Counted from the stretch's first letter, positions 15,122-32,862 are shown. The stretch: DNA of 33,233 nt from an uncultured Nitrospina sp. (GCA_964471995.1 CAYYIR010000001.1:1-33233); one strand, 5' to 3'. Numbers and translations: made by a program. The notes: a model not told the origin generated them from the sequence alone.

Positions 15122-16855
15122 CTATTCGCTAAAAGATTTTTCCGCAAGAGCAATATGCTCGGCATTATGGATTTCCAACCAGCCTTTATGTATTTCCAAA
15201 TAGTGGACTATAAAACCACGATCTATCATTTCTTGGATAAGGTCGGTGAGGTTTAGCTTAGAAATATCTTCAGACTCTTGAAAATGCCCCTGGTAGTTTT
15301 TTACGATATCATTATAAGTTTCGATTAATTGTTCTGCTCCAGTTTTACTGAATTTTGCTAATCCAATAAATTCATGACTAGCGGTTTCCGGATTTATTTT
15401 ACTACCTATTTTTGCGACTACATTTTCGCTAGCAAAACGTATTTCCCTTCGCACGCGTTTATGCTGATGTTTTCCGATGATAAAATCTAAAACGTTACCT
15501 TCTTGGGTTTCGTGATACTGGGTGGAGTTGTCTGCGACCAGAATGATATCTTCTCGTCGACCCATTAGATCCTTGATAATTTCATCTTTCATGAGGATAT
15601 CTGCATAAAGCATCACGAACCCATTTACCATTTTTTCTTTTCCAACAAACAGGGAATTTAGTACTGATCCATTTTTAAAATCCAGATTTTCAAGGACGGT
15701 GATTCCATCTGCCCGCATTTGGTCTCGACCGTATCCGGCAATAACAGTGATATCCTTTAGGTTACTATTATTTAAAGCATGAATTTGATGTTCGAGAAGG
15801 GTCTTTCCACAGATTTCTAGCATGGCCTTAGGTTTTCCATTCAGGATTTCTTTTAAGACCGGGTCTTCTCCTGCAGCAGGAATGATGACTGGGACATTTG
15901 TGGATTGTTCATTTTCTTGATCCTTTTCTTTAACATCTAGAAAGCCTACCGTTTTAAAAATTTCTCTTACCGTGCTGCATAGTGGATCTGCTTCTAAGGA
16001 TCGCTGATCACGGAGAATTGTTTTTGCGGTTTCTGTCATGGATTTGTATGCACTTCTTAGTAAATGATTTGCATAAATGATGATCTGGAATCCTGCATTG
16101 CTTAGTTCATCTTCAGTAATTTGATTGTAAGTGGTAGGCACGCAAACGAGAGTTTTATTCAAATGCATTTGCTTGGAAATTACTTTGTATTGCTGGGCAA
16201 ATTCGAGAATTTCATCAGCGGATTTTGATTTTGAGTGAATCATTATTCCGTCAACACCTGCCTGTAAATAAATTTTAGCTCTACTGACCGCATCTTCCAT
16301 GGGTTTGCCAGCGATGAGGCTTTCGAGCCTTGCAATTATCATAAACTCATCGGTTTTTTGGATTTGTTTTCCACGCCGAATTTTTTGAGCAAATACTTCA
16401 GGGTCCTCTAGGTTTTGTTGAACTCCTGCTTCGAGACTATTTCGTTTTGGGAATATTTTGTCTTCTATAATTATTGCTGAGACCCCAACTCTTTCCAGTT
16501 TAGATACAGTGTATTCAAATGCGTTTACATCTCCGCCCGTGTCTCCATCGACAATCATTGGTTTATTGGTAACGGAAAGAATCTCATTGATGGTTTGCAG
16601 CCTTGAATCAAAAGTTACTACTTCAATGTCAGGGTGTCCCTTTGATGCCGAATCTGTGAGACTACTCTCCCAGATAGCGTCGAACTCACGAACCAAAGAT
16701 TTGCCATCATGCTCGCCTTTAACTTGGGCGTTATTTGCGACAATTCCGCTTAATCCGTTATGAGCTTCTAAAACGCGAACGGTTTGGTTTTTTTCCAGAA
16801 GAGCTTTTAATTTTCCTCTTCGTTGTTCAGGCAGTATGTTATTTAGGAGGGTCAT
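15122..16855 (-). CDS. aepX: Phosphoenolpyruvate phosphomutase fused to a C-terminal nucleotidyltransferase (LicC/MobA-like) domain
   Basis: N-terminal ~300 aa are isocitrate-lyase/PEP-mutase fold, with AIWESSLTDSAS, IVDGDTGGD and IARLES. The PEP-mutase-diagnostic EDKxxxxxNS reads IIIEDKIFPKRNS (16436..16465). From about residue 320, VPVIIPAAGEDPVLKEILNGKPKAMLEICGKTLLEHQI plus ITVIAGYG indicates a nucleotidyltransferase fold. No in-frame start codon lies at the junction. Confidence 0.8.
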   Translation of the reverse strand: MTLLNNILPEQRRGKLKALLEKNQTVRVLEAHNGLSGIVANNAQVKGEHDGKSLVREFDAIWESSLTDSASKGHPDIEVVTFDSRLQTINEILSVTNKPMIVDGDTGGDVNAFEYTVSKLERVGVSAIIIEDKIFPKRNSLEAGVQQNLEDPEVFAQKIRRGKQIQKTDEFMIIARLESLIAGKPMEDAVSRAKIYLQAGVDGIMIHSKSKSADEILEFAQQYKVISKQMHLNKTLVCVPTTYNQITEDELSNAGFQIIIYANHLLRSAYKSMTETAKTILRDQRSLEADPLCSTVREIFKTVGFLDVKEKDQENEQSTNVPVIIPAAGEDPVLKEILNGKPKAMLEICGKTLLEHQIHALNNSNLKDITVIAGYGRDQMRADGITVLENLDFKNGSVLNSLFVGKEKMVNGFVMLYADILMKDEIIKDLMGRREDIILVADNSTQYHETQEGNVLDFIIGKHQHKRVRREIRFASENVVAKIGSKINPETASHEFIGLAKFSKTGAEQLIETYNDIVKNYQGHFQESEDISKLNLTDLIQEMIDRGFIVHYLEIHKGWLEIHNAEHIALAEKSFSE

Positions 16856-17126
16856 CTCTGCTACTTTCTATTTCAATAAGCTCTCGTATCCATGAGGCCA
16901 CATAGATACTATCAAGATCAAAATTTTTTAATGCTTGCAGTATGACCTCGGTTTGTTCTTGAAGCGAGAGGTTTTTATCTAAAAGGATAAGGTCTTTACC
17001 ATTTAATTTGCAATAACCGCTTTGTATATGGAAATCCTGATCATTTAGATTTGTGATCTGTATTTCGATTGCTAATTTTTCTACGACACTTGTCAGATCT
17101 TCTATTTTACTTTTTATATCCTGCAT
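16839..17126 (-). CDS. Hypothetical 95-aa protein
   Basis: ATG-initiated ORF that exactly fills the rseP-to-PEP-mutase gap. Its stop overlaps the PEP mutase start by 17 nt, which suggests translational coupling. No recognisable motif and no obvious SD. Confidence 0.45.
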   Translation of the reverse strand: MQDIKSKIEDLTSVVEKLAIEIQITNLNDQDFHIQSGYCKLNGKDLILLDKNLSLQEQTEVILQALKNFDLDSIYVASWIRELIEIESSRDDPPK

Positions 17127-17154: not shown

Positions 17155-18522
17155 TCAGCTAATGACTCTAATAATGTCGTTGTAAAAAGCAAATACCATG
17201 AGACCAATCAACATAAATAGGCCTACTTGGTTTGCCCTTTCCCTGTTTCTTTCACTGACGGGTTTTCCTTTTAAAATTTCAATAAGGAAAAAGAAAATAT
17301 GGCCTCCATCCAATACTGGAATAGGCAACAGATTTAACAGGCCTAAATTAATGCTAAGTAATGCGGTTAGTCGAATTAGTTCGTTAAATCCTTGTTCTGC
17401 CTGTTCTCCGTAAATCTGGAAAATCAGTATAGGGCCGCCAATGGAATCGGCTGGGATAGAACCCCATATCATTTTCTTAATACTTACTGCGATTAAAAAA
17501 ATTAGTTTTCCTGTTTCTTCCAAGGCTCTTTTAAATGCTCCGAGAAACCCATATTTTTCCTGAGTCATTTCTCCGCTCATTCCAATACCCAGCATACCTA
17601 TTTCAATTTCTTTTCCTTGAAGATCCTTGGTAATTTTTGCTTCGGGAGTGATTTTTAGGACCCTTTTAGTGCCATTTCTTAAAACATGAAAAGATAGCTC
17701 TTGTCTAGGTTTGTCTATTGCAGCGGTTTTGAGATTTCCCCATCCAAAAATTTCTGTTTCGTCAACCTTTAAAAGAATATCACCTTCCTGCATTCCAGCT
17801 TGAGCTGCGGGGGTATTGGCTTTGACTAAAGTAATATTATGGACCAGTGGGGTTATTCCTATAAGACCTACTAATTCTTTGTCTCCAAACAAGTCGGTTA
17901 TTTCCTCTGCGACGGGAACTATAGGAACATTTTCGATATTGCTGTTTCTTTCTAATTTGAAATTTAAAGGTTGGCCAGGTGACTCATGGACAATTTTTTG
18001 CAATTGTTCCCAGTAAAGAATTTCTTCATCTTCAATCGCCAGAATGCGATCTCCGGTTTGAAGTCCTGCCTCAAGAGCTGGGGAGTCATCATTCACTGTC
18101 CCCACAACGGGAGTCAAAGTGGGAACACCCATGAGGTAAACAAAATAATAAATGCTGATTGCAAAAAGAATATTGAAAAGTGGTCCTGCAAATGCAATAG
18201 CAAGACGATGTCCTACTGGTGCAGCTGCAAACGATCCTTTTTCATCTGTTCCTTCTTCACCAACTTCTTCTCCCTTCATTTTTACATAGCCACCAAGCGG
18301 AATAGCTGCAATCAGGTATTCTGTGCCACCCTTTGTAAAGCCGAATATCTTTGGCCCAAAACCAAGAGCAAACTTTTCTACTATGACACCAGCTTTTCTT
18401 GCAGCTAAAAAATGTCCCAGTTCGTGAACAAAAATAAGAGCAGCAAGTCCCGCTAAAAAAGCCAGCATTTTGGTGCTGAAATTCAGGATTGCATCAATGG
18501 GCAATATTGATAATTCAAACAT
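17155..18522 (-). CDS. rseP: RIP site-2 zinc metalloprotease RseP
   Basis: HELGHFLAARKAG (HExxH) in TM1, two PDZ-like segments, and NLLPIPVLDGGH (LDG motif) near the C-terminus. Confidence 0.93.
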   Translation of the reverse strand: MFELSILPIDAILNFSTKMLAFLAGLAALIFVHELGHFLAARKAGVIVEKFALGFGPKIFGFTKGGTEYLIAAIPLGGYVKMKGEEVGEEGTDEKGSFAAAPVGHRLAIAFAGPLFNILFAISIYYFVYLMGVPTLTPVVGTVNDDSPALEAGLQTGDRILAIEDEEILYWEQLQKIVHESPGQPLNFKLERNSNIENVPIVPVAEEITDLFGDKELVGLIGITPLVHNITLVKANTPAAQAGMQEGDILLKVDETEIFGWGNLKTAAIDKPRQELSFHVLRNGTKRVLKITPEAKITKDLQGKEIEIGMLGIGMSGEMTQEKYGFLGAFKRALEETGKLIFLIAVSIKKMIWGSIPADSIGGPILIFQIYGEQAEQGFNELIRLTALLSINLGLLNLLPIPVLDGGHIFFFLIEILKGKPVSERNRERANQVGLFMLIGLMVFAFYNDIIRVIS

Positions 18523-18527
18523 TTAAA

Positions 18528-19178
18528 TTATGGGCCTTTTGTGTAATCCAAGACTTCTGTATTAGGAGGTGCCTGGAATTGAAAGGTTCTTTCAGGAATG
18601 TTTATATTAATTTTTATATTACTAAAGCGAATTTCTGTTTTATTTCCTAATTTATCATACACGGTTGATCCCGTAATCTGGAAGTTTTTCTTGTCTGCGA
18701 ATAATTGCAATCGCTTTAACGCTTGATCTTCTTCCTTTGGACTGAGTGTGATACTAAGAGGATTTATATTTACATTTTCAATATTAAAAATATGAGTCAA
18801 TTTTTCTTGCCCGGCCAAAAAAAGTGCAGGAGTGTTTGCAGAATATATGCTTTCAATAGGTACCTTGGTAACTTGATTTTCTTCGGAAACATAATGCCAA
18901 AGTATTTTTCCATTGCTGATTAAGACTTGAGTGTCCGGTAAACCATAGACCCATTTCATCTTTCCTGGTTTTTTAATTTGAACTTTACCTTTTGTTTTAT
19001 GGGCTTTATCCATCATTTTAACGTAGGATCGTTGAGTGAAATCGGCTTCAAAGGTTAAGATGTTTTCGTACTTTTGCTGAACAGCATCCAAAGCTTGTTG
19101 CTCTGGAGTTTCTGCGTAGCCTAAATGCCCATTTAACAAGATAAGGATATATATTATAAGCTTGTTAATCTGAGTCAA
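18528..19178 (-). CDS. lolA: Outer-membrane lipoprotein carrier protein LolA family
   Basis: Contains FEADFTQRSY, KGKVQIKKPGKMKWVY and QVLISNGKILWHY. The track ORF opens at GTG 19208 inside purN. TTG at 19178, 1 nt after the purN stop, gives a clean signal peptide (TQINKLIIYILILLNGHLGYA/ETP). Confidence 0.8.
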   Translation of the reverse strand: MTQINKLIIYILILLNGHLGYAETPEQQALDAVQQKYENILTFEADFTQRSYVKMMDKAHKTKGKVQIKKPGKMKWVYGLPDTQVLISNGKILWHYVSEENQVTKVPIESIYSANTPALFLAGQEKLTHIFNIENVNINPLSITLSPKEEDQALKRLQLFADKKNFQITGSTVYDKLGNKTEIRFSNIKININIPERTFQFQAPPNTEVLDYTKGP

Positions 19179-19179
19179 T

Positions 19180-19803
19180 TTAACTTCCCTTTGTTTTATG
19201 TAAAACACGCCGGCCGGAAATCATAAGTTTTTTTTCTATTAAAAGTCGAATTGCCTTTGAATAAATGATGTGTTCTTGCTTGAGAATTCGCTCTGAAAGC
19301 GAATTGGCATCGTCTTCATCTAAAATGGGAACAGTGGATTGCAAAATTATTGGACCTCCATCTACTTCTTCATTCACGAAGTGAACCGTACAACCTGAAA
19401 ACTTTGCTCCATGTTCCAAGGCTTTTTTTTGTACGTTCAAACCAGGAAATGCAGGGAGTAATGAAGGGTGGATATTTATAATTTTCTTGGGAAAAGCTTG
19501 TATGAACTTTTTGCCAAGTATTTGCATAAAACCAGCTAGGCAGATTAAATCTATGGATTTAGACTGTAAAATCTCAATCATTTTAAGCTCATAATCATCT
19601 CGATTTGGAAAGATTTTGGGATCCAAAAAAACAGTATCCAAGCCATGTTTTTTTCCTCGATCCAATGCAAAAGCATTTTTTACATTGCTAAATACCAATG
19701 CTATATCTGCAGACAAAAGATTACTTTCTATATTGTCAATGATAGCTTGCAGATTGGATCCGTGGCCGGAGACTAAAACGGCAAGTTTAAATTTTTCTGG
19801 CAT
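19180..19803 (-). CDS. purN: Phosphoribosylglycinamide formyltransferase
   Basis: Contains LAVLVSGHGSNLQAIID, INIHPSLLPAFPG and GCTVHFVNEEVDGGPII. Confidence 0.93.
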   Translation of the reverse strand: MPEKFKLAVLVSGHGSNLQAIIDNIESNLLSADIALVFSNVKNAFALDRGKKHGLDTVFLDPKIFPNRDDYELKMIEILQSKSIDLICLAGFMQILGKKFIQAFPKKIINIHPSLLPAFPGLNVQKKALEHGAKFSGCTVHFVNEEVDGGPIILQSTVPILDEDDANSLSERILKQEHIIYSKAIRLLIEKKLMISGRRVLHKTKGS

Positions 19804-19881
19804 TTAAAAAAGTGGCAACTAAATTAAACAAAAAAGAAGTGGCTCACAAGCTAATATAAGCTAGGGCCAAAAAATATAGTG

Positions 19882-22089
19882 TTAGTTTTTTCCTATTAAA
19901 CTGTCGCGAATTATTTTAAGAAGGCCTACGTTTTGAGTGTGACCCGATTTGCTGGCTTTTATTTTTCCGCGGATGGGTTTTCCTAATAAATAAAAATCGC
20001 CCAAAATATCAAGAATTTTATGGCGAGCGAATTCATCTTCAAACCGCAATTTAGTGTTTAAAACCTTTTTGTCTCCTAACAAAATAAAATTATCGAGCTT
20101 TCCACCTGAGGCGTAACCCATTTTGGTTAATTGTGCGACTTCTTCCATAAACCCAAAAGTTCGAGCTGGGGCAATTTCTTTTTTAAAACTTTCATCACCT
20201 TGATATTCATAAGTAAAATCTTGGATTCCTATGGGTTCGGGATATTCCATATGGTAACTAACTGAAAAATTTTCGCTAGGTTCAATAGAAATATAGGGTT
20301 CACCTTTATCTTTATTTCCAAAGGAGTAACGTTTGTCTACAATTATTTCTTCGTAGAAATCGTCTTGGTCTTCAAATTCTCCATCTTCCAAAAGTTCGCA
20401 AAAATCCTTTGCGGAACCATCCATTACCGGGGCTTCATCGCCAATTTTTATGAGAAGATTGGTAACTCGGTACATGTGCAAAGTGGCCATAATATGTTCA
20501 ATAGTGCCCACTGAGTTAGCCCCTTTTTTTAGGCAAGTCGAATAATCTGTTGATTGGACATTTTCTAGTTGGGCAGGGATTGTTTTTCCCGACCCTATAT
20601 CACCAAAGATTATTCCACTTCCAGGCGGCATGGGTTGTAATATCAGCCCGGTTTTTATCCCAGAATGTAAACTGCTACCACAAAGAACAACACTTCGCCT
20701 TAAAGTTCTTTGTGGATATCTTTTCTGTGTAGGGGTGGTCTCGGCCTTTTTTATTTTAATGGAATGGTATTTAAGTTTTTCGTTAAATCGTTTCTTTTCT
20801 GTTTTTAAATTCTTACAGGTTTTATCTATGTCCCAATTATTCTGTTTTAAATTGTAGAGAATAAAGTGTTTTTCCCATATAGACTCTGCTTCCTCAAGGG
20901 AGCCTGCTTGATTGAAACTTCTAATATCTATAAGATTTTGTGGTTGCCAAATTTTTGAAGGCAAGTCCTGAATACTAATAGTATTTTGATTGGCACATAT
21001 GAGTACTAGTTTTTCCAAAACACTACGAAGTTCTTTGATGTTTCCAGGCCAGTTATATCTACGAAGTGCGGTCAAGGCTTCATCTTCAATATTTGGAACA
21101 TTGATATTTTGGCGGCGTCTTGTTTCTTTAAGGAATTCCTCTACAATTGCAGGAATGCTGGTTGAGTAATTTCTTAAGGGTTGAACGAGAAGACTAGTTT
21201 CTTTAAAACAATCAAGTAAAAGTTGGTTGAACTGGCCCTTAGCCGCTAGATCTTCAAGGTTTTCCGAAGAGGAAATAAATAAACGATCGGGTAAGAATTC
21301 AAAATTTAAATCTTTGATATTTGTACTCTGCAAAACTTCCGCTAATTTTTCCTGAAGACCCATGCTGAGAGATTCAATATTACTTAAAAAAACGACTTTT
21401 TTTCCTAGAGCCTGATTATTTTTAGTTTTACTGTTTTTTTCTTTTCGTTTGAAAAGCTGCGATTGAATAGCCTGTTTTTTTCGGAATAAGCAATTTAATT
21501 TTATAAAAGGCAAATCGCTTTTTTTACTTTGGGCATGAATAGTGCGGGCCACTGCTTCCTTGCCTGTCCCGTTTTCTCCTAGTAGAAAAACAGGTTTCAT
21601 GTGTTTAGAAAAAGACTTGATACCCTTTTTAACGTCTAGCATCGATTCAAAGCAGATAGGAAGTTCTTGCAAAGAATGAGAGTGGTTGAATTCTTTTGAG
21701 GTGTAAGAATTTCTTTCCTGAAGGACATTTTGAATTGACTCAGTAATGCGGTCGAGTGAAAAAGGTTTTTCAATGAAATCTTGGGCGCCTAGTTTAGTAG
21801 CCTTTACAGCAGTATCAATAGTGCCATGACCTGACATAATTAAAACTTCTACTCCGGAATTGTAAGTTTTTAAAGTTTTTAAAACTTCGATTCCATCCAT
21901 GCCGGGCAGCCATATATCTAGTAAAACTAGATCTGGGGGATCTTTTTGAATTATTTCTAATGCTTCCACCCCGTTACTTGTCGTAGAAATCTCATATCCT
22001 TCATCAGACAGGATTCCGATGAGGGAGCTGACAATATTTTTTTCATCATCAACAATAAGAATTCGTTCTTTAGGCAAATTTCGCTCCAA
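19882..22089 (-). CDS. lpxC: Four-module fusion: response-regulator receiver, degenerate NtrC-type AAA+ core, Fis-like HTH, and full-length UDP-3-O-acyl-N-acetylglucosamine deacetylase (LpxC)
   Basis: REC (about 21715..22065): ILIVDDE, LLDIWLPGMDG, IMSGHG, EKPF. AAA+ (about 20935..21640): Walker A GENGTGKE is kept. GAFTGA, Walker B (VFLSNI) and the Arg-finger stretch are lost. HTH: WEKHFILYNLKQNNWDIDKTCKNLKTEKKRFNEKLK. LpxC (residues 460-735, 19885..20712): QRTLRRSVVLCGSSLHSG, TIEHIMATL, PVMDGSA, ARTFGFMEE, GGKLDN, FARHKILDILGD, KSGHTQN. There is no ATG before the REC domain; the start is TTG at 22089, or TTG at 22077 which has GGAG 5 nt upstream. Confidence 0.85.
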   Translation of the reverse strand: MERNLPKERILIVDDEKNIVSSLIGILSDEGYEISTTSNGVEALEIIQKDPPDLVLLDIWLPGMDGIEVLKTLKTYNSGVEVLIMSGHGTIDTAVKATKLGAQDFIEKPFSLDRITESIQNVLQERNSYTSKEFNHSHSLQELPICFESMLDVKKGIKSFSKHMKPVFLLGENGTGKEAVARTIHAQSKKSDLPFIKLNCLFRKKQAIQSQLFKRKEKNSKTKNNQALGKKVVFLSNIESLSMGLQEKLAEVLQSTNIKDLNFEFLPDRLFISSSENLEDLAAKGQFNQLLLDCFKETSLLVQPLRNYSTSIPAIVEEFLKETRRRQNINVPNIEDEALTALRRYNWPGNIKELRSVLEKLVLICANQNTISIQDLPSKIWQPQNLIDIRSFNQAGSLEEAESIWEKHFILYNLKQNNWDIDKTCKNLKTEKKRFNEKLKYHSIKIKKAETTPTQKRYPQRTLRRSVVLCGSSLHSGIKTGLILQPMPPGSGIIFGDIGSGKTIPAQLENVQSTDYSTCLKKGANSVGTIEHIMATLHMYRVTNLLIKIGDEAPVMDGSAKDFCELLEDGEFEDQDDFYEEIIVDKRYSFGNKDKGEPYISIEPSENFSVSYHMEYPEPIGIQDFTYEYQGDESFKKEIAPARTFGFMEEVAQLTKMGYASGGKLDNFILLGDKKVLNTKLRFEDEFARHKILDILGDFYLLGKPIRGKIKASKSGHTQNVGLLKIIRDSLIGKN

Positions 22090-22094
22090 ATGTT

Positions 22095-22745
22095 TTAGGT
22101 GACCGAACTGACAGTTCCCAGTCGCATGTATTCTAGATAAAATATTTTTTCACCTGCATTGATAAAGTTTTTTTCGTACTTTGTTTTTGGCAGATCTATT
22201 CTCTCTTTTAGAAAGCCTTGTTGACTATCAATATTTTGAAATAATTTCTCTGCGTTAAAATATTCAAGTATTTCGAGCGCATAGCTTTCGTTATCTGTCG
22301 CTAAATAGGTTATTCCTTCTAAATTCAGTTTTTGTGCTAATTGCTTAATGAATTCGGGTTTAATAAGTCTTCTTTTGAAATGCCTTTTTTTCGGCCAAGG
22401 ATCCGGAAAATTTATGTAAACAGTGTTTAACTCTCTATCTTTAAAAAGCATGGGTATTTTACTTCTAATATCCCCATACACCACCCTTATATTTTCTAGT
22501 TGAAGCTTTTTAATGCGGGTCATCAATTTTCTTATCCCCTTATGATAAAAGTCTATCCCGATAAAATTACTGGCGGGCTCTTTGGCTGCCATTTCAATCA
22601 GAAAGTTTCCCATTCCAAAGCCAATTTCCAATTTAATAGGGTTTGTGTTTCCAAATTGGGATTGCCAATTTGGCCTTTTATCTACGTCCAAAAAATAAGG
22701 GTCTTCTTCTGCAATTTCTGAAAATGATATTAGAGGTTTTGCCAT
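22095..22745 (-). CDS. trmB: tRNA (guanine(46)-N7)-methyltransferase
   Basis: Contains LEIGFGMGNFLIEMA, IGIDFY and YINFPDPWPKKRHFKRRL. Confidence 0.9.
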   Translation of the reverse strand: MAKPLISFSEIAEEDPYFLDVDKRPNWQSQFGNTNPIKLEIGFGMGNFLIEMAAKEPASNFIGIDFYHKGIRKLMTRIKKLQLENIRVVYGDIRSKIPMLFKDRELNTVYINFPDPWPKKRHFKRRLIKPEFIKQLAQKLNLEGITYLATDNESYALEILEYFNAEKLFQNIDSQQGFLKERIDLPKTKYEKNFINAGEKIFYLEYMRLGTVSSVT

Positions 22746-22756
22746 TAGTCTTAAAC

Positions 22757-23242
22757 TTAATTCTCTCCATCTGGATCATCATGAATCGTTATCACTTTTA
22801 ACACTTCAAACTCCAATTTATTGTCGGGGAGCGGGATAATAACGTCATCTCCCTGCTGTTTGCCCACAAGAGCCCGACCTACAGGTGATGCTGCAGATAG
22901 TTTTCTTTCATCAGGATTGACCTCTTCTGGGAAAACCAGTTGAAACTTTTTTTCTTCGCCGGAGTTAAGGTCACGAAGAAAAAGAATGCTGCCAAGGCCG
23001 GAGCGGTCATTGGGGATTTTGCCTAGGTCAATTGAAGTGATATCACTAATTCTTTTTTGTAGAAGGGACACTCTTGACTCAAGGAACATTTGTCTTTCTT
23101 TGGCAGCTTTAAATTCTGCATTTTCGCTTAAGTCACCATGCTCGCGTGCGGTTTTTAAAGCTTTAGGTATATCTACTTGTAATTCTCTCTGGGATTCTTT
23201 TAATTCCTTATCCAGTTTGTCCAATATGGGAAGTCGCGTCAT
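22757..23242 (-). CDS. greA: Transcription elongation factor GreA
   Basis: 161 aa. N-terminal coiled coil includes AREHGDLSENAEFKAAKERQ. The C-terminal globular domain includes SPVGRALVGKQQGD. Confidence 0.92.
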   Translation of the reverse strand: MTRLPILDKLDKELKESQRELQVDIPKALKTAREHGDLSENAEFKAAKERQMFLESRVSLLQKRISDITSIDLGKIPNDRSGLGSILFLRDLNSGEEKKFQLVFPEEVNPDERKLSAASPVGRALVGKQQGDDVIIPLPDNKLEFEVLKVITIHDDPDGEN

Positions 23243-23447
23243 AGAAAATTTATCTCAAGAAAAATATTATTTTATTATTATTTACCCTTGGGCCTTTTAA
23301 CACTAAAATCATTTTTGGTTATTTTTTAAAAGTTTTTAAGGGGTGTAATTTAAGTATGCAGAGAATAGTATGTTGGATCTGGTATGCTAACCTTAAAAAT
23401 TTTCCTAAATCATTTAAATGAAACCCCTTAGATAGAAAAGGCAACTT

Positions 23448-23477
23448 ATTGTATGGGTTGAATTGCTTTTCGGTCAA
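23448..23477 (-). promoter_or_regulatory. Candidate sigma70-type promoter for greA and the downstream array
   Basis: Minus strand reads TTGACC (23477..23472), an 18 nt spacer, then TACAAT (23453..23448). This implies a greA leader of about 200 nt. Confidence 0.35.
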
Positions 23478-23524
23478 CATAAATTTCCACCTTTGAAATT
23501 TAAGGAGCAACTTGCCTTAAAATC

Positions 23525-23554
23525 TTGACTTATAAAAAAATAAATGGATAGAAT
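23525..23554 (+). promoter_or_regulatory. Candidate sigma70-type promoter facing the oxoprolinase gene
   Basis: TTGACT (23525..23530), an 18 nt spacer, then TAGAAT (23549..23554). It is back-to-back with the minus-strand candidate and implies a 5' leader of about 265 nt. Confidence 0.3.
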
Positions 23555-23826
23555 CCAAAATTATCTTAAGCAGCTCCTTAATTTTAACAACAGAGGTAGC
23601 AGAGAGCTTCGTTAGTTCTTGCTTTTGGATAATGGGTTAGAGAAATCCTTCTAAAACTTTAAAAAAACAATGGTTATTTATCGCTTTTGTCCGATGCTTT
23701 TTTAGGTCTTAAAAAGCTGAAAAAATTATACCAATAGTTCTAATGAGAGAAGCTAAGGATTTATTCAGACTGAGCAGGTATTAACAGATAAAATTAAAAG
23801 GTTTTTTAATAGCTTGACTTTTGGCG

Positions 23827-26800
23827 ATGATTGATCCTAATTCATTCCGGTTTTCCATAGACCGTGGCGGTACTTTCACCGATATTTATGCAGAAGTACC
23901 TGGTGAGCCTGGATTTAAAGTTTTAAAGCTCCTTTCAGAAAACCCGAAACGATATCTTGATGCGCCTATCGAGGGGATGCGTCAAATTATTCAAGAAGTT
24001 ACTGGTAAACCTATTTCTTCGGAAAACTTACCTTCCGAGTTAATCGAATGGGTTCGTATGGGTACCACCCTTGCGACCAACGCCTTCATTGAAAGAAAGG
24101 GAACGAGGACTGCGCTCGTTATTACAAAAGGCTTTCGTGATTTGCTTCAGATAGGAAAGCAAAATCGTCCTAAAATCTTTAAGTTAAAAATTGAAAAACC
24201 TTGTCCCATTTATGAAGCGGTTCTTGAAATAGATGAGAGAGTTCGTATTCTTCCTGCAAATGAAGTGGAGGTTTTGCGTGAACCAGATGTTGTAGATATA
24301 AAAGAGCAGCTATCCAAAATTCGACAATGCGGGGTCGAAAGTCTGGCGATTGTTTTCATGCATGCTTATGTCTTTCCAGATCATGAGAAAATTGTAAAAG
24401 CATTGGCGCAAGAATGTGGATTTAAAAATATTTCTCTTTCCAGTGAAGTTCTTTCCCAAATCAAATTTGTAGACCGTGGCCAAACCACTTGTCTTGATGC
24501 CTATTTAAACCTGCCTATACAAAATTATTTAAAAAATTTTAACCAGATATTTTCAAAAAAACCTTTGTTTGTTATGCAATCCGATGGAGGAATGGTGGAA
24601 CCTGATTCTGTTTTTGGTTGTCGCGTTTTACTATCAGGTCCTGCTGGAGGTGTTGTGGGCTATGCACAATCCGTTTACGAAAATTGTGGTAATCGCCCGA
24701 TTATTGGGTTTGACATGGGAGGAACTTCCACTGATGTTTCACGGTTTGGTGGGGAATATGAATGGAGTTATGAAAATGAAATTGCTGGAGTGCCGGTTCA
24801 AGTGCCGCAATTAAATATCGTTACCGTTGCGGCTGGTGGTGGGTCTCGATTATTTTTTGAAAATGGAATGTTTCAGGTGGGACCTGAATCTTCTGGTTCC
24901 TATCCTGGTCCTGTCTGTTACCGCAACGGGGGCCCTCTCTCCCTCACCGATGCCAACTTGGTTTTAGGTAGGTTGCCGAATTTTCCAAAAGTATTCGGAG
25001 AAAAAGGTGATCAAGCCCTTGATAAAGAAAAAGCGCTAAAATCGTTTAAAGAACTGTCAGAAGATATTTCCAAAGAAACCGGGCAAATAAAAACAATGGA
25101 AAAAACCGCTCTAGGTTTCATTGAAGTCGCTAATGGAAATATGATCCGTCCCATTCATGAAATCTCAACAGCTAGAGGCTTTGATATTCGTGATCATGTG
25201 CTCGCTTGTTTTGGTGGTGCAGGGGGACAGCATGCTTGTGCCATAGCAAAATCCCTTGGAATAAAACGAGTTTTTGTTCACCGATTTTCAGGAATCCTTT
25301 CTGCCTATGGGATGGGCCTTGCTAACACCACTGTCGAAAAACAAGAAACAGTTTTCTTTGAAATAAGTGAAGACATTCCTAATGAACTTATTTGCAAAAT
25401 TGAAGAGTTGGCTGAGTCAGTTCGTGAGGAAATGGACAGCAAGAACGAAATGGAAGTTGATGTGCAAAAGTTTTTAAACATAAGGTTGGAGGGCTCTGAT
25501 ACGACATTAATGGTTCGCCTGATACCAGAAAAAAACATAGTAGAAGAATTTAAAAGAAACTATCAAAGGGAGTTTGGGTTTAATCCAAGGGACAGAAAGA
25601 TTCAGGTACAAGACATTCGAGTTCGCGGGGAAGGAAAATTACCAAAACCCGTAAAAACAAAAATCAGTAAGAAATATAAACAGGTTCAGCCTGTTTCCAT
25701 TCATCAATGTTATTTTGAAGATAGTTGGCTAGACACTCCAGTTTATAAAGGCGAATTCCTGGGGGCAGGAAATATGCTTTTGGGCCCAGCAATAATTTTA
25801 CAAGAAACATCTACAATTTTGATAGAGCCTGATTGTAAGGCTAAAGTGAATAACTATGGTGATATTGAAATTGAAGTAGGGCAACTTAAAGAAAAAAGTA
25901 AGAGTGTGAATTTAGATCCCGTGCAACTTGCTTTATTTGGTTCGCGTTTCATGTCGATTGCAGAACAAATGGGGCGTGTCCTGCAAAGAACAGCTGTTTC
26001 TATCAATATCAAGGAAAGATTGGATTTTTCCTGCGCAATATTTGATCCCGAAGGTGGTCTGGTTGCTAATGCTCCTCATCAACCTGTGCATTTAGGGGCA
26101 ATGGGAGATGCCGTAAAAAAACAGGTTGAACTAAATGGCATAAATCCGGGGGAAGTTTGGATGACCAATCATCCGGAAGTTGGTGGTAGTCATTTGCCCG
26201 ATATAACGGTAATAACTCCTGTGTTAAAGGATGGCAGGCCAATTTTTTTTGTAGCAAATAGGGGGCACCATACAGACGTTGGTGGTATTACTCCTGGTTC
26301 CATGCCGTCCTTTTCAAAAACTTTGAAGGAAGAAGGTGCCTGTATAAAAACTTTTAAACTGGTTCAAGGTGAAGAGTTTCAGGAAGAGAAGATTAAAAGT
26401 ATTTTACAAAAGGCGGGTGCGCGTTCCCTTTCTGATAACATTTCTGATCTTAAAGCGCAGTTGGCTGCTAACCAAAAAGGAATTGTCCTTTTAAATGAAT
26501 TGATCGAATCGCATTCTTTAAGGGTAGTCCAGGCTTATATGCAGCATTTGCAAGATAACGCAAGTAATAGTGTTCGTGCGTTATTAAGATCACTATGCGG
26601 TGATAAAGATAAAATACAGTTTTGGGCAAAAGATTTTTTAGATAACGGTAGTGCGATTCATTTGAATTTGACGGTTAAAAAGAAAACAGGGGAATGCTTA
26701 TTTGATTTTTCTAAAACTTCGAAGCAATTGTCGGGAAATCTCAACGTTCCTAAAGCCGTGACGCGTTCTGCGATTCTTTATTGCCTGCGTTGCCTAATTG

Positions 26801-27435
26801 ATAGTGATATCCCCTTAAATCAGGGGTGTCTGAATCCCATTAAAATATTAATCGAAGAAGGATCCTTACTTTCACCGACTCAAGATGCAGCGGTGGTCGC
26901 AGGCAATGTGTTGACTTCACAACGTATTGTTGATGTGATTTTTAAAGCGTTGGGTAGTTGTGCAGCTTCACAAGGTTGTATGAACAACTTCACTTTTGGT
27001 AATGAAATGTTTGCCTATTATGAGACAATCGGCGGCGGTGCAGGGGCAGGCCCAGACTGGCATGGTCAGTCTGGTGTACACTCGCATATGACCAATACTA
27101 GAATCACCGATCCAGAAGTGTTCGAAAAACGCTACCCTGTTCTACTCCGCGAATTTTCAATACGCAAAAACTCTGGAGGCAAAGGAAAATTTACCGGTGG
27201 TGACGGACTCATAAGGGAAATAGAATTTCTTGAACCGTTAACCGTAACGATTCTTTCCGAGAGAAGAGTATTTGCTCCTTACGGATTAAACGGCGGTGAA
27301 CCTGGTGCAAGGGGAAAGAACCTTAAGATTACGAAAGATGGCACTGAAAGCGACCTAGGTGGTAAAAACACATTCCAAGCTGAACCCGGCGACCGCATCC
27401 GCATTTTAACTCCAGGCGCAGGTGGAGTGGGCTAA
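23827..27435 (+). CDS. ATP-dependent 5-oxoprolinase / hydantoinase A-B fusion (single-chain, OPLAH-like)
   Basis: About 1200 aa. The N-terminus [20 protein letters not shown] is hydantoinase_A/oxoprolinase-like. The C-terminal half ([44 protein letters not shown] ... [11 protein letters not shown]) is hydantoinase_B-like. The track ORF opens at TTG 23821; ATG 23827 is preferred. Confidence 0.88.
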
Positions 27436-30243: not shown

Positions 30244-32862
30244 ATGACTTCAAAATTGAAAATTAATTTTATTGCCTACGCCTGCTTGTTTGCTTCAGGT
30301 ATGGCTACTTTGGTTTACGAACTTATTTGGTTTCGTTATTTAACTCTTGTTTTTGGAGCAAGTTTATATGCTTTAAGTGCAGTTTTATGTGCTTTTATGC
30401 TTGGTCTAGCATGTGGATCTTGGTTGATGGGGCGGTTTCTCGCAAGGGTTGGTGTGTCGAAGAAATTGATTTTATGGTATGGCCTTTTTGAGGGATTGAT
30501 CGGTTTATACGCTTGGTTTTTCCCATTTGGCTTGGAATTATTAGAGAAAATTTATCCTTTGGTATTACCTGCAGATGGTCAGACGGGGCTCGGACTTCAT
30601 GTCATGGAATTTGTTTTTGGCACTTTTTTGATGTTGCCCGCTACTTTATTAATGGGTGCTACGCTACCCTTATTAGGTTGCTGGGCGGTTGGTACTGACA
30701 AGGACCAGGTTTTTTCAAGGTTATCAAGTTTGTATGGGTGGAATACCATGGGCGCTGTTTTTGGTTGCCTGTTCACACAGTTTTTTGCAATACGTTTTTT
30801 GGGTGTTCAAGGTGCTATTTGGATTGGAATTTTATTAAATGCTTTGGTTTTTTTTGTGTGCTTTGTTGGAGTGCGATTTTTAAGTCAAGTAGAATTCCGC
30901 TCCAATATACGACAAAAATTAAAAACATCAGTTGTTCAAGAAAAACTTACACCAACAATAGTATTTTTGATTTTTATGATGTTTGCATATTCAGGGATGG
31001 CAGCTCTTTCGAGTGAAATTTTATGGACACGAATTTTAGTTTTTCCGATGGGAACAACGCTATTTTCTTTTGCGTTGATACTTGCCACCTTTTTATCGGG
31101 AATTGCATTTGGAAGTTTAATGGCAAGGAAACTATTGGGGGAATCAAATTGGGTTTTAAAATTTTTGTTGATCGAGATTGTTATTGGCTTGATTTGTATT
31201 GGAATTCTTCCTTTGCTTGAAAACTTGACAGAATGGACTGCGCTAGCGGACCAATTTTTTTATAGTTTAGAAAACTCGCCTGGAAAAACACTTTTTATAA
31301 GGTTTCTATTTGCCTTCGGATTGATGTTTGTTCCCACGTTTTGTTTTGGTTTGCTATTTCCTCTTGCTAACCATATTTATTCTCAGCATTTGGAAAGTGT
31401 AAGTAAAGCGATTGGCAATGCTTATTCAATAAATACATTTGGAGCAGTTGTGGGAACTATCCTGACGCCCTTTGTATTTATTCCCCTATTTGGTATTCGT
31501 TTGTCAATTTATCTGATCTATGCGGTGTTAATTTTATTTGGAATTTTTGTTTTGGCAATATATAGAAATCAAAAATTTACTTGGACTTCCATTGCTTTGA
31601 TTACTACTTTCATCTTTTTATTAATTGGAAAAACGTTAATTGTTCCTAGTATAGAAACCGGACAATCGGGGGTCCATAACTTAGCCCGACTGGAAATAAA
31701 TGTTCCTAAAGATAGATTAAGGCTTTTAGATTACAAAGAAGGAGAATTTTCTACAATCAGTGTCGTTGAAGACAGGAAATCAGGTGCGCGAACCATTTAT
31801 CTGGATGGTTTTAGTACAGCTACGGTTTCCAGATCTTTTTCAGGCAGTACTTATATGCAGGCTATGGGTTTTGTTCCCATGGCCATTCATCCCGCCCCTA
31901 AAAATGTTCTCGTTATAGGTTTTGGTACTGGAAATACATTGGGAATTGCTTCCCTTTTTCCAAACGCGAATGTTCACGGTGTGGAGATTGATAGAAATGT
32001 TTTGGAGTTTTCTAAATGGTTTTTGGATTGGAATCATGATGTGTTGCAGCGTCCTAATACAAAAATCTTTGTGCAGGATGGACGGGCTTTTTTGCGTTGG
32101 TCAAAAACTCGTTATGATGTGATTATCATAGAGCCAATGTCACCATTGCAGGCGGGTGTGGTTAATCTATACTCCAAAGAATTCTATGAATTGGCTCTAA
32201 ACCGTCTTGAAAATGATGGGATTCTGGTTCAATGGCTTCCCTTGCATTTAGTGGGGTCTGAGGATGCCAAATCAATTATTCATACTTTTAAAAATGTGTT
32301 TCCGAAATTTTCGGTCTGGAACAGTTTTTTAACTCGCATTGTTCTATTGGTAGGATCACGTGAACAGATGATTATTGATAAGAATTTGTTCGAGAAAAAA
32401 TTAGAAAACCCTGAGCTTAAAAAGGTGGCGGAAGAAATGAAGGTGATGTCTTTTCTGGATTTTGCAGATTTCTTTCTCACCGATGGAGGTTATTTGTCTG
32501 GTTTTTTGGAAAATGCTGAAGAGATATCCGATGACAAGCCTCTTCTCGAATTTTCCAAGGTATCTTTGTTACCACCAATGCAATGGGAAACAGATGAAAG
32601 CTTTTTAAATATTTTGCGTCACAGAGTTTATCAAAAGCCTCCTGTAAAAGGATTAAGTAGTACAGAGCAAGATGCTTTTGATCGTAATTTACAATTGAGA
32701 ACAGCGCAAAGGCTCGGTGTGTTTTCGCGACGATACCAAGGCCCAGGAGCACAATTGTTTGCAGCTAAAAATTATCTAGAGGGTTTGAAAGCTATGAATA
32801 TTTATTTTGAAAACCACAAGAAACCTTTAGTTCATTTGGATGATGCTAGGTGGCAAAGATGA
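30244..32862 (+). CDS. Polytopic membrane domain fused to a spermidine-synthase-like (class I methyltransferase-fold) domain with a C-terminal extension
   Basis: The first ~480 aa contain about 12 hydrophobic helices. Next comes VLVIGFGTGNTLG...HGVEIDRNVLEFSKWF...VQDGRAFL...YDVIIIEPMSP...LYSKEFYELALNRLENDGILV, which is colinear with SpeE. About 170 further residues follow. Confidence 0.75.
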   Translation: MTSKLKINFIAYACLFASGMATLVYELIWFRYLTLVFGASLYALSAVLCAFMLGLACGSWLMGRFLARVGVSKKLILWYGLFEGLIGLYAWFFPFGLELLEKIYPLVLPADGQTGLGLHVMEFVFGTFLMLPATLLMGATLPLLGCWAVGTDKDQVFSRLSSLYGWNTMGAVFGCLFTQFFAIRFLGVQGAIWIGILLNALVFFVCFVGVRFLSQVEFRSNIRQKLKTSVVQEKLTPTIVFLIFMMFAYSGMAALSSEILWTRILVFPMGTTLFSFALILATFLSGIAFGSLMARKLLGESNWVLKFLLIEIVIGLICIGILPLLENLTEWTALADQFFYSLENSPGKTLFIRFLFAFGLMFVPTFCFGLLFPLANHIYSQHLESVSKAIGNAYSINTFGAVVGTILTPFVFIPLFGIRLSIYLIYAVLILFGIFVLAIYRNQKFTWTSIALITTFIFLLIGKTLIVPSIETGQSGVHNLARLEINVPKDRLRLLDYKEGEFSTISVVEDRKSGARTIYLDGFSTATVSRSFSGSTYMQAMGFVPMAIHPAPKNVLVIGFGTGNTLGIASLFPNANVHGVEIDRNVLEFSKWFLDWNHDVLQRPNTKIFVQDGRAFLRWSKTRYDVIIIEPMSPLQAGVVNLYSKEFYELALNRLENDGILVQWLPLHLVGSEDAKSIIHTFKNVFPKFSVWNSFLTRIVLLVGSREQMIIDKNLFEKKLENPELKKVAEEMKVMSFLDFADFFLTDGGYLSGFLENAEEISDDKPLLEFSKVSLLPPMQWETDESFLNILRHRVYQKPPVKGLSSTEQDAFDRNLQLRTAQRLGVFSRRYQGPGAQLFAAKNYLEGLKAMNIYFENHKKPLVHLDDARWQR

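Follow-up and report, generated by a model that had tools for sequence, protein, structure and literature searches.

The window analysed here is a 33,233-nucleotide stretch of DNA from an uncultured Nitrospina sp. (GCA_964471995.1 CAYYIR010000001.1:1-33233). On its minus strand, at 19882..22089, the ORF listing gives one uninterrupted open reading frame (ORF) of 735 codons that joins a response regulator to LpxC, the committed enzyme of lipid A synthesis. Pfam recognises Response_reg, Sigma54_activat, AAA_lid_14 and LpxC domains in the translation. A first-pass annotation made from the sequence alone had described a single ORF with four modules. The ORF listing and Pfam agree with it, and all the motif strings it quoted were found in place in the translation. 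The parts of the ORF are given below, with residues numbered from the first TTG.

19882..22089, minus strand: whole ORF, 735 codons from the first TTG; receiver (REC), degenerate AAA+, lid, helix-turn-helix (HTH)-like module, LpxC
21733..22062, minus strand: receiver, residues 10-119 (Pfam PF00072 Response_reg, E=3e-32)
21175..21645, minus strand: degenerate NtrC/NtrX-type AAA+ core, residues 149-305 (PF00158 Sigma54_activat at 149-291)
20938..21174, minus strand: AAA+ lid, residues 306-384 (PF25601, AAA_lid_14, at 311-384, E=2e-18), with WPGNIKEL and the sensor II region
20764..20898, minus strand: diverged Fis/NtrX-like three-helix module, residues 398-442 (NtrX 5m7n alignment and helices of an AlphaFold2 (AF2) model)
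20713..20763, minus strand: variable linker, residues 443-459, without an in-frame start codon (AF2 predicted local distance difference test, pLDDT, <50)
19885..20712, minus strand: LpxC (UDP-3-O-acyl-GlcNAc deacetylase) module, residues 460-735 (PF03331, TIGR00325, alignment with Pseudomonas aeruginosa LpxC)

The second TTG, at 22077, is probably the true start, because it fits the consensus N-terminus of the family and has a GGAG 6 nt upstream. The product would begin MPKERIL... and measure 731 aa. The stop codon of trmB lies 18 nt ahead of this TTG.

The LpxC module is matched by PF03331 at residues 460-727 with 264.5 bits (cutoff 27; E=1.5e-78) over profile positions 1-266 of 268, and by the TIGR00325 lpxC model with 222.5 bits against a cutoff of 187.25. 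The LpxC motifs are located at 529-532 (TIEH), 690-698 (HKILDILGD) and 715-720 (SGHTQN). The module aligns with P. aeruginosa LpxC at E=4e-48, with E531, H532, T644, H690, K691, D694, D698 and H717 at the positions of E77, H78, T190, H237, K238, D241, D245 and H264, respectively. The zinc ligands (H532, H690 and D694), the general base (E531), the second catalytic histidine (H717) and the active-site residues T644, K691 and D698 are all present. These catalytic and zinc-binding columns are near-universal across 82 fused and unfused LpxC sequences. The module looks catalytically competent; the first-pass annotation had reached the same view, and its metal ligands were correctly assigned. The ORF ends 8 residues past the profile match. 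No FabZ/FabA domain was found in the ORF by Pfam, and the LpxC-FabZ model NF009667 matched through its LpxC half alone (197 bits against a cutoff of 465).

The fused LpxCs differ from the unfused ones at both the C-terminus and in the body of the module. The tail after the catalytic histidine has a median length of 16 aa in fused LpxCs, against 39 aa in the unfused sequences scored. In E. coli LpxC, the C-terminal tail region carries the FtsH degron (PMC12444477). G481 is present in 100% of fused and 0% of unfused sequences, and K548 in 97% and 0%, with E or D there in most unfused LpxCs. Residues V468, T480, G481, L546, K548, C564 and Y616 are near-fixed in the fused LpxCs and rare in the unfused ones, and they are candidates for receiver contacts or a regulatory surface.

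Codons 421-470 were read base by base. ATG, GTG and TTG are all absent, with leucine encoded by CTT or TTA and valine by GTT, and the first in-frame methionine beyond them is M487, within the LpxC fold. Therefore, no free-standing LpxC can be made from this locus. The earlier statement that LpxC is made only as a C-terminal module holds for this locus, which is the scope of the result, and the lack of a start codon ahead of LpxC reported with it was borne out. The linker segment at 446-459 has a mean identity of 24% across the family.

The receiver carries VDDE (13-16), LLDIWLPGMDG (56-66), IMSGHG (84-89) and EKPF (107-110), and it has every residue by which PF00072 receivers are judged (acidic pocket, phospho-acceptor aspartate, serine or threonine, aromatic switch and lysine). 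D14, D15, D58 (the phospho-acceptor), S86, F105 and K108 are kept in 119-120 of 120 Nitrospinota homologues; the exceptions are one gapped sequence and a single S86T. The receiver had been called intact, and the PF00072 match and these column counts confirm it.

The AAA+ core has decayed. PF00158 matches residues 149-291 with E=4e-19 and 69 bits, versus 251 bits for the unfused sigma54 regulator of an lpxC-ntrY locus (L077). Its motifs are GENGTGKE (171-178), VFLSNI (233-238), FNQLLLDCF (287-295) and WPGNIKEL (347-354), and QSQLFKRKEKNSKTKNNQ is found at residues 209-226 of the translation. None of the 120 homologues departs from the window protein at G171, G174, G176 and K177 of Walker A. At the Walker B aspartate position, 94 have serine and 21 aspartate, the window protein reading VFLSNI. 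There is no arginine at the finger position in any of them, and the GAFTGA loop that contacts sigma54 is replaced in all by a variable K/S/N-rich loop. The first-pass calls (Walker A kept; Walker B, GAFTGA loop and arginine finger lost) are thus extended to the whole family. Since Walker A is invariant, the module probably still binds nucleotide; it probably can neither hydrolyse ATP nor contact sigma54.

In its sequence, the N-terminal part of the protein is NtrX-like. Its best match in the PDB is Brucella NtrX (5m7n), to which residues 10-440 align end to end (5m7n residues 6-450, E=3e-52), including the C-terminal helix-turn-helix of NtrX. NtrX is also the best-scoring NCBIfam regulator model (NF051870; residues 9-441 against model positions 3-449 of 452), with a score of 247 bits that lies far below the equivalog cutoff of 600. 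The first-pass annotation had proposed a Fis/HTH_8-like skeleton and recommended profile searches. PF00072, PF00158 and PF03331 match, while Pfam HTH_8 (PF02954) gave no match to the window protein even at E<=1. An AF2 model of the full-length protein, built with 57 homologues at 59-89% identity, was used for residues 398-442 alone. It places helices at 398-416, 421-428 and 432-442 with block-mean pLDDT values of 73-87, in an otherwise poor model. What stands of the proposed skeleton is an HTH that is weakly supported, by the 5m7n alignment, the NCBIfam NtrX model and the three predicted helices.

Conservation and spread of the fusion

Searching 5.8 billion proteins for homologues gave at least 120 clusters, 59-100% identical and all with the same Pfam set. 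Nearly all of the homologues measure 720-740 aa, and a few shorter ones look truncated. Those with a named source carry the label Nitrospina, Nitrospinaceae, Nitrospinota or Nitromaritima, and several lie on contigs of 2.3-3.25 Mb. On a related Nitrospinaceae contig of 3.25 Mb (ERZ25072999), the fusion is kept at 60% identity. The gene order there is identical to that of the window: greA-trmB-fusion-purN-lolA-rseP-95 aa-PEP mutase-proS-rimP-nusA-infB. The conservation in related genomes called for in the first-pass annotation is therefore seen in at least 120 Nitrospinota clusters.

Conservation of each module was measured as mean identity to the window protein. It is 84% for REC and 85% for LpxC, the best-conserved part of the protein. 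The values fall to 57% for AAA+, 52% for the lid, 59% for the HTH region and 24-37% for the linkers. REC and LpxC are the constrained pair; the AAA+, lid and HTH modules between them change much more quickly.

HMMER was run exhaustively over 1.84 billion representatives clustered at 50% identity, and mapping the domains of the matches revealed three architectures: REC-AAA+-lid-HTH-LpxC of approximately 700-736 aa, REC-HTH-LpxC of 491-505 aa, and REC-linker-LpxC of approximately 420-460 aa. The short forms add at least 120 further clusters and retain every receiver and LpxC catalytic residue. Where the source is named, they belong to Candidatus Binatia, except for one Verrucomicrobiae metagenome-assembled genome (MAG) and one unclassified bacterium. 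For a Binatia REC-LpxC of 426 aa, AF2 (120-sequence alignment) reached a pLDDT of 86.5 and a predicted template modelling score (pTM) of 0.82, even with a disordered linker of 21 residues. This hints at a fixed receiver-enzyme arrangement in the REC-LpxC relative.

The GTDB species genomes were scanned with the LpxC-domain alignment, and each ORF was extended upstream. The scan patterns were specific to fused-type motifs, with divergent lpxC paralogues beyond their reach, and gave at least 80 loci. Among the 80 loci listed, 37 are fused to REC (35 of them intact) and 43 are stand-alone LpxCs. The fused loci are 42-86% identical to the window LpxC module, except L039 at 38%, and the stand-alone loci are 36-42% identical; the most similar stand-alone LpxC among the loci listed is at 42%. 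Two candidates for a close stand-alone LpxC among the 50%-identity representatives were rejected, P0164 as a fragment on a 902-bp contig and P0168 for its frameshifted middle. By record title, the fused taxa are Nitrospinota, Binatia, Thermodesulfovibrionia, Thermodesulfobacteriota (Syntrophobacter, Syntrophorhabdus, Desulfomonile, Desulfocapsaceae and Desulfopila sp. IMCC35006) and Acidobacteriota (Thermoanaerobaculia, Holophagae and Terriglobia). Desulfopila sp. IMCC35006, a RefSeq assembly, is the only fused record not labelled as a MAG. The taxonomic spread of REC plus LpxC, which the first-pass annotation had left to be checked, covers several phyla.

Two of the fused genes are split by frameshifts (L005:2178-4840 and L027:3543-4819), with a REC (and AAA+) ORF overlapping an LpxC ORF. 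These splits are assembly errors or pseudogenes, and in L027 the upstream NtrY gene is split too. In a groundwater Nitrospinota MAG (L018:1058-3943), the frame is open for 297 codons upstream of the receiver, and no extra domain was recognised in these codons.

A neighbour-joining tree of 38 fused and 44 unfused LpxC sequences, rooted on P. aeruginosa, recovered the fused LpxC domains as monophyletic in 100 of 100 bootstraps. The short forms are deepest in this tree and the long forms are nested; the rooting inside the clade is not reliable enough to read a direction, from long to short forms or the reverse.

Linked kinases and the neighbourhood of the gene

Of the 37 fused loci, 14 have an NtrY-type kinase gene immediately upstream of the fusion and on its strand, and long as well as short forms are among them. 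The kinase of a Syntrophobacteraceae locus has the domain order NtrY_N-HAMP-PAS-HisKA-HATPase_c, and its gene stops 10 nt short of REC-LpxC. Several of the 14 kinase genes are themselves preceded by a gene for DUF4390, or PlrP, for which a role as third component of NtrYX-family systems was recently proposed (PMC13001219). In a sister lineage within Nitrospinota, which has a 505-aa REC-HTH-LpxC, the order is DUF4390-NtrY-fusion-purN-lolA. NtrY is present in Nitrospinaceae, including N. gracilis. On the 3.25-Mb Nitrospinaceae contig, DUF4390-NtrY lies approximately 130 kb from the fusion and has no adjacent response-regulator gene, and the fusion has no adjacent kinase gene.

The same partners surround stand-alone lpxC genes. 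Five unfused loci, from Acidobacteriota, Rokuibacteriota and 'Deltaproteobacteria', have the order lpxC-(DUF4390)-NtrY-type kinase-REC/AAA+ regulator, and the regulator has an intact GAFTGA. The regulator of L077 scores 251 bits with Pfam Sigma54_activat and has HTH_8. In four loci (L059, L060, L068 and L072), a DUF4390/PlrP-like gene stands between the stand-alone lpxC and the NtrY-type kinase. DUF4390 had been mapped to beta, gamma, zeta and Magnetococcia proteobacterial lineages (PMC13001219); because of these four loci, it is not confined to them.

Published work ties such systems to lpxC. The sigma54-dependent regulator DVU2934 of Desulfovibrio vulgaris, which has GAFTGA, binds upstream of lpxC and nowhere else (PMC3333781, PMC4641369). 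In D. alaskensis, losing the kinase Dde_3000 alters essentially lpxC alone, and lpxC has a sigma54 promoter (PMC4045070). The unfused lpxC-NtrY-sigma54 regulator loci match this Desulfovibrio two-component system, which has lpxC as its sole target. When R. sphaeroides loses NtrYX, its lpxC mRNA rises 8.8-fold and its lipopolysaccharide (LPS) increases as well (PMC7240162). For two alphaproteobacteria, a 2025 review counts NtrYX among the transcriptional inputs to lpxC; it gives proteolysis (FtsH/LapB, Lon), activation by binding partners and transcription as the known forms of LpxC regulation (PMC12444477).

The immediate neighbours of the fused gene in the window are as follows.

22095..22745, minus strand: trmB, upstream of the fused gene, in the place taken by the kinase in the sister Nitrospinota lineage (DUF4390-ntrY there)
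18528..19803, minus strand: purN and lolA, directly downstream; this synteny is shared by both Nitrospinota lineages

The genes greA-trmB-fusion-purN-lolA-rseP are tightly packed on one strand, and the lolA start (GTG at 19208) overlaps the purN end (19180) by 29 nt. A promoter and terminator scan of 18400-23900 gave counts as in shuffled sequence (21 versus 15.9±4.2, and 5 versus 4.9±2.3), with no minus-strand terminator between greA and lolA. The terminator-free stretch from greA to lolA is compatible with co-transcription and is not evidence for it.

Further out, 15122-16855 (minus strand) encodes a 577-aa protein in which PEP mutase is fused to a MobA-like nucleotidyltransferase domain, and a 95-aa ORF without a Pfam match precedes it at 16839-17126 (minus strand). 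Both are kept beside rseP in the related Nitrospinaceae contig (L001), and they may link phosphonate biosynthesis to the envelope. A 1204-aa ORF lies at 23821-27435 (plus strand); its counterpart at the same position in L001 (1282 aa) joins Hydantoinase_A and Hydantoinase_B. The 872-aa protein at 30244-32862 (plus strand) has a spermine/spermidine synthase domain at 537-691 as its sole Pfam match, with long stretches on either side left without an assignment.

Proposed phosphorylation control and its alternatives

Starting from the observed anatomy, conservation, clade structure and gene linkage, we favour, at somewhat better than even confidence, a reading of the sequence in which the NtrX of this lineage has been fused to its target enzyme LpxC and the fusion is under NtrY-driven control at the level of phosphorylation. 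On the broader claim, that NtrY-(NtrX::LpxC) would be a direct phospho-switch on the committed enzyme of lipid A and that control of LpxC would be an ancient core function of NtrYX/PlrSR, we are evenly divided.

The NtrY membrane kinase and its periplasmic partner DUF4390/PlrP would be encoded elsewhere in the genome of the lineage. NtrY would phosphorylate D58 of the receiver, and a conformational or oligomeric change would be passed to LpxC and alter its activity. The signal would travel directly, as in the REC-linker-LpxC relatives, or via the decayed AAA+/three-helix scaffold. Phosphotransfer from NtrY, an effect on catalysis and the sign of that effect (activation or inhibition) are what we infer. 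The protein could act via allostery, dimerisation or stability, and the invariant Walker A may reflect regulatory nucleotide binding. Lipid A flux would be set post-translationally by an envelope sensor, and not by sigma54 transcription or FtsH proteolysis.

The history of the protein may be pictured in the same terms. A two-component system of the NtrY/NtrX-NtrC type would already have been dedicated to lpxC before the fusion. Regulator and target enzyme would have become one polypeptide in one LpxC lineage, and control would have moved from transcription to the protein. The sigma54 machinery and the DNA-binding module would then have decayed, the window protein being a decayed intermediate. 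The AAA+ and HTH-like modules would have been deleted in many lineages and would be, here, vestiges of an NtrX/NtrC-type factor that once regulated lpxC. The constant parts would be the phospho-acceptor receiver, the competent-looking LpxC and, where the linkage is kept, the NtrY kinase.

Several points weigh against this reading. No kinase is encoded within the 33-kb window, and the pairing with NtrY draws on gene order in relatives and on a single large, related contig. Other kinases accompany some of the fused genes: a Desulfomonile long form (L020:2-2005) follows a hybrid kinase (PAS-HisKA-HATPase-REC-REC), and a Holophagales short form (L023:275-2709) follows an OmpR-type kinase/regulator pair. 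For the full-length window protein, AF2 gave a poor model (pLDDT 68, pTM 0.41, LpxC partly <50) that is silent on domain contacts. The three-helix module has nine residues (E402, W405, E406, L414, W419, T424, K438, H442 and I444) that are invariant in 57 Nitrospinota sequences, and because of this invariance within Nitrospinaceae a residual DNA-binding role is possible.

These last residues also speak for an uncoupled bifunctional protein, in which an NtrX-like, sigma54-independent DNA-binding regulator and a constitutively active LpxC would simply be co-expressed. So do the three helices predicted at 398-442 and the alphaproteobacterial NtrX, which also lacks GAFTGA in the aligned loop and yet is a DNA-binding regulator (PMC7240162). 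However, HTH_8 is undetected by Pfam, REC and LpxC evolve far more slowly than the other modules (AAA+, lid and HTH), and many members of the same clade keep REC but lack HTH and AAA+. The confident overall arrangement modelled for the REC-LpxC relative (pTM 0.82) also argues for coupling, and we consider the uncoupled protein unlikely. Phosphorylation might instead set the amount or location of LpxC and leave catalysis alone, with the receiver serving as a phospho-dependent degron, an adaptor or a membrane-targeting switch in place of FtsH/LapB. In other bacteria, LpxC is controlled through proteolysis or localisation (PMC12444477). Most of the C-terminal tail has been lost in the fused clade, which fits such a replacement, but no protease or adaptor gene is linked to the locus. 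The receiver-enzyme fusions known to us act by allostery or dimerisation, and control of amount or location has, in our judgement, a similarly small chance of being correct.

The first-pass annotation had offered two readings, a phosphorylation-gated LpxC and an LpxC serving as the sensor domain of a DNA-binding regulator. The gated LpxC is favoured because REC and LpxC are the conserved pair (84% and 85%, versus 57%, 52% and 59% for AAA+, lid and HTH) and because AAA+ and HTH are dispensable, relatives having REC-HTH-LpxC or REC-linker-LpxC. The sensor reading has LpxC binding a UDP-sugar or an acyl chain for a transcription factor, with the true deacetylase elsewhere. The result that LpxC is a C-terminal module covers this locus and leaves room for a second lpxC, a point that also counts against phosphorylation gating. 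Still, few of the 82 sequences, fused or unfused, depart at any of the zinc ligands and acid/base residues, the TIGR00325 score of the module exceeds the equivalog cutoff, no other part of the protein is as well conserved as LpxC, and many relatives have lost the HTH; a ligand sensor is thus highly improbable. The least credible explanation is that faulty assembly or a frameshift joined lpxC to a separate response-regulator gene. Errors of this kind, or pseudogenes, do exist, since 2 of the 37 fused loci (L005 and L027) are frameshift-split. Independent assemblies nevertheless supply at least 120 clusters with the uninterrupted architecture, some of them on contigs of 2.3-3.25 Mb, and 35 intact genome loci from several phyla have the fusion, while the linker itself lacks a start codon. 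The worry about a frameshift or merged ORFs is refuted by the same architecture in many independent assemblies, and the chance of an artefact is negligible.

Phosphorylation gating of LpxC by NtrY would matter for several reasons. The flux into lipid A is set by LpxC, itself a major antibiotic target. A receiver covalently joined to it would add a different logic, in which an envelope sensor kinase acts directly on the enzyme. To our knowledge, this would, if true, be the first case of two-component phosphorylation gating LPS biosynthesis at the protein level. Nitrospinota, major nitrite oxidisers in the sea, conserve this architecture, as do Binatia and many Thermodesulfobacteriota and Acidobacteriota. 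NtrYX/PlrSR is pleiotropic and essential in some pathogens, and its core function is debated. The lpxC-DUF4390-ntrY-ntrX linkage and the ntrX::lpxC fusion both suggest that LpxC and the outer membrane were central to what NtrYX ancestrally controlled. If this is true, the fused and unfused arrangements are a Rosetta stone for LpxC control as a core NtrYX/PlrSR function across many phyla, and the decayed AAA+ and HTH capture a transcription factor on its way to becoming an allosteric enzyme regulator. The full sigma54 activator, the decayed AAA+/HTH, REC-HTH and REC-linker forms make up a natural series, useful for tracing a possible route from transcription factor to enzyme regulator. The system is directly testable with purified protein and standard LpxC assays.

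Comparison with known systems

Searches across 8 million full texts brought up no description of a REC-LpxC or NtrX-LpxC fusion, and the only LpxC fusion that they showed under discussion was LpxC-FabZ/FabA. Neither 'fusion' nor 'response regulator' occurs in the text of the 2025 review of lipid A regulation (PMC12444477). Databases auto-annotate the fused proteins as 'LpxC' or 'NtrX'.

Among the closest known systems is the NtrY/NtrX (PlrS/PlrR) two-component family, to which Brucella NtrX (5m7n) and the periplasmic partner PlrP (DUF4390) belong. Aligned end to end, NtrX and the N-terminal part of the window protein share REC, an AAA+ without GAFTGA and a putative C-terminal Fis-like helix module. 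DUF4390-NtrY adjoins the fused gene in relatives and has no adjacent regulator in the Nitrospinaceae contig, and the family is already tied to the envelope and to lpxC expression (PMC7240162, PMC12444477, PMC13001219). Unlike NtrX, the fused protein adds a complete C-terminal LpxC enzyme. Brucella NtrX keeps its Walker B (LYLDEV) and arginine finger (FREDL), whereas the window protein has lost both. Its HTH is too diverged for Pfam, its score is 247 against 600 bits, and ntrY is not adjacent in the window lineage.

Desulfovibrio DVU2931-2934 and Dde_3000-3003 resemble the fused family as a two-component system dedicated to LpxC, with lpxC beside an NtrY-like kinase and an NtrC-type regulator, a linkage also present in the 5 unfused loci. 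The Desulfovibrio system acts on transcription, by way of an AAA+ ATPase with an intact GAFTGA and a sigma54 promoter (PMC4045070, PMC4641369). In the window, by contrast, a single polypeptide contains both regulator and enzyme, and its sigma54 machinery is decayed.

LpxC-FabZ (NF009667), the only widely cited LpxC fusion (bioRxiv 10.1101/2025.10.16.682753), is similar in that the LpxC part matches. It carries a C-terminal metabolic-enzyme partner, whereas the fusion described here has an N-terminal signalling module. Control by FtsH/LapB(YciM) in enterobacteria also differs. The fused clade is without the long C-terminal tail (median 16 versus 39 residues), and the fused LpxC would be controlled by a sensor kinase, through phosphorylation.

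Response regulators with enzymatic outputs, such as CheB (REC-methylesterase), PleD/WspR (REC-GGDEF) and RpfG (REC-HD-GYP), have an N-terminal receiver, a flexible linker and a C-terminal enzyme, which is exactly the layout of the short REC-linker-LpxC relatives. CheB-type regulators have a fixed receiver-enzyme arrangement, which the AF2 model of the REC-LpxC relative hints at as well. In contrast to these signalling enzymes, the LpxC output is a biosynthetic zinc amidase of the lipid A pathway, and in the window protein a vestigial AAA+/HTH stands between receiver and enzyme. The fusion joins two known themes: response regulators with enzymatic outputs and NtrYX control of lpxC.

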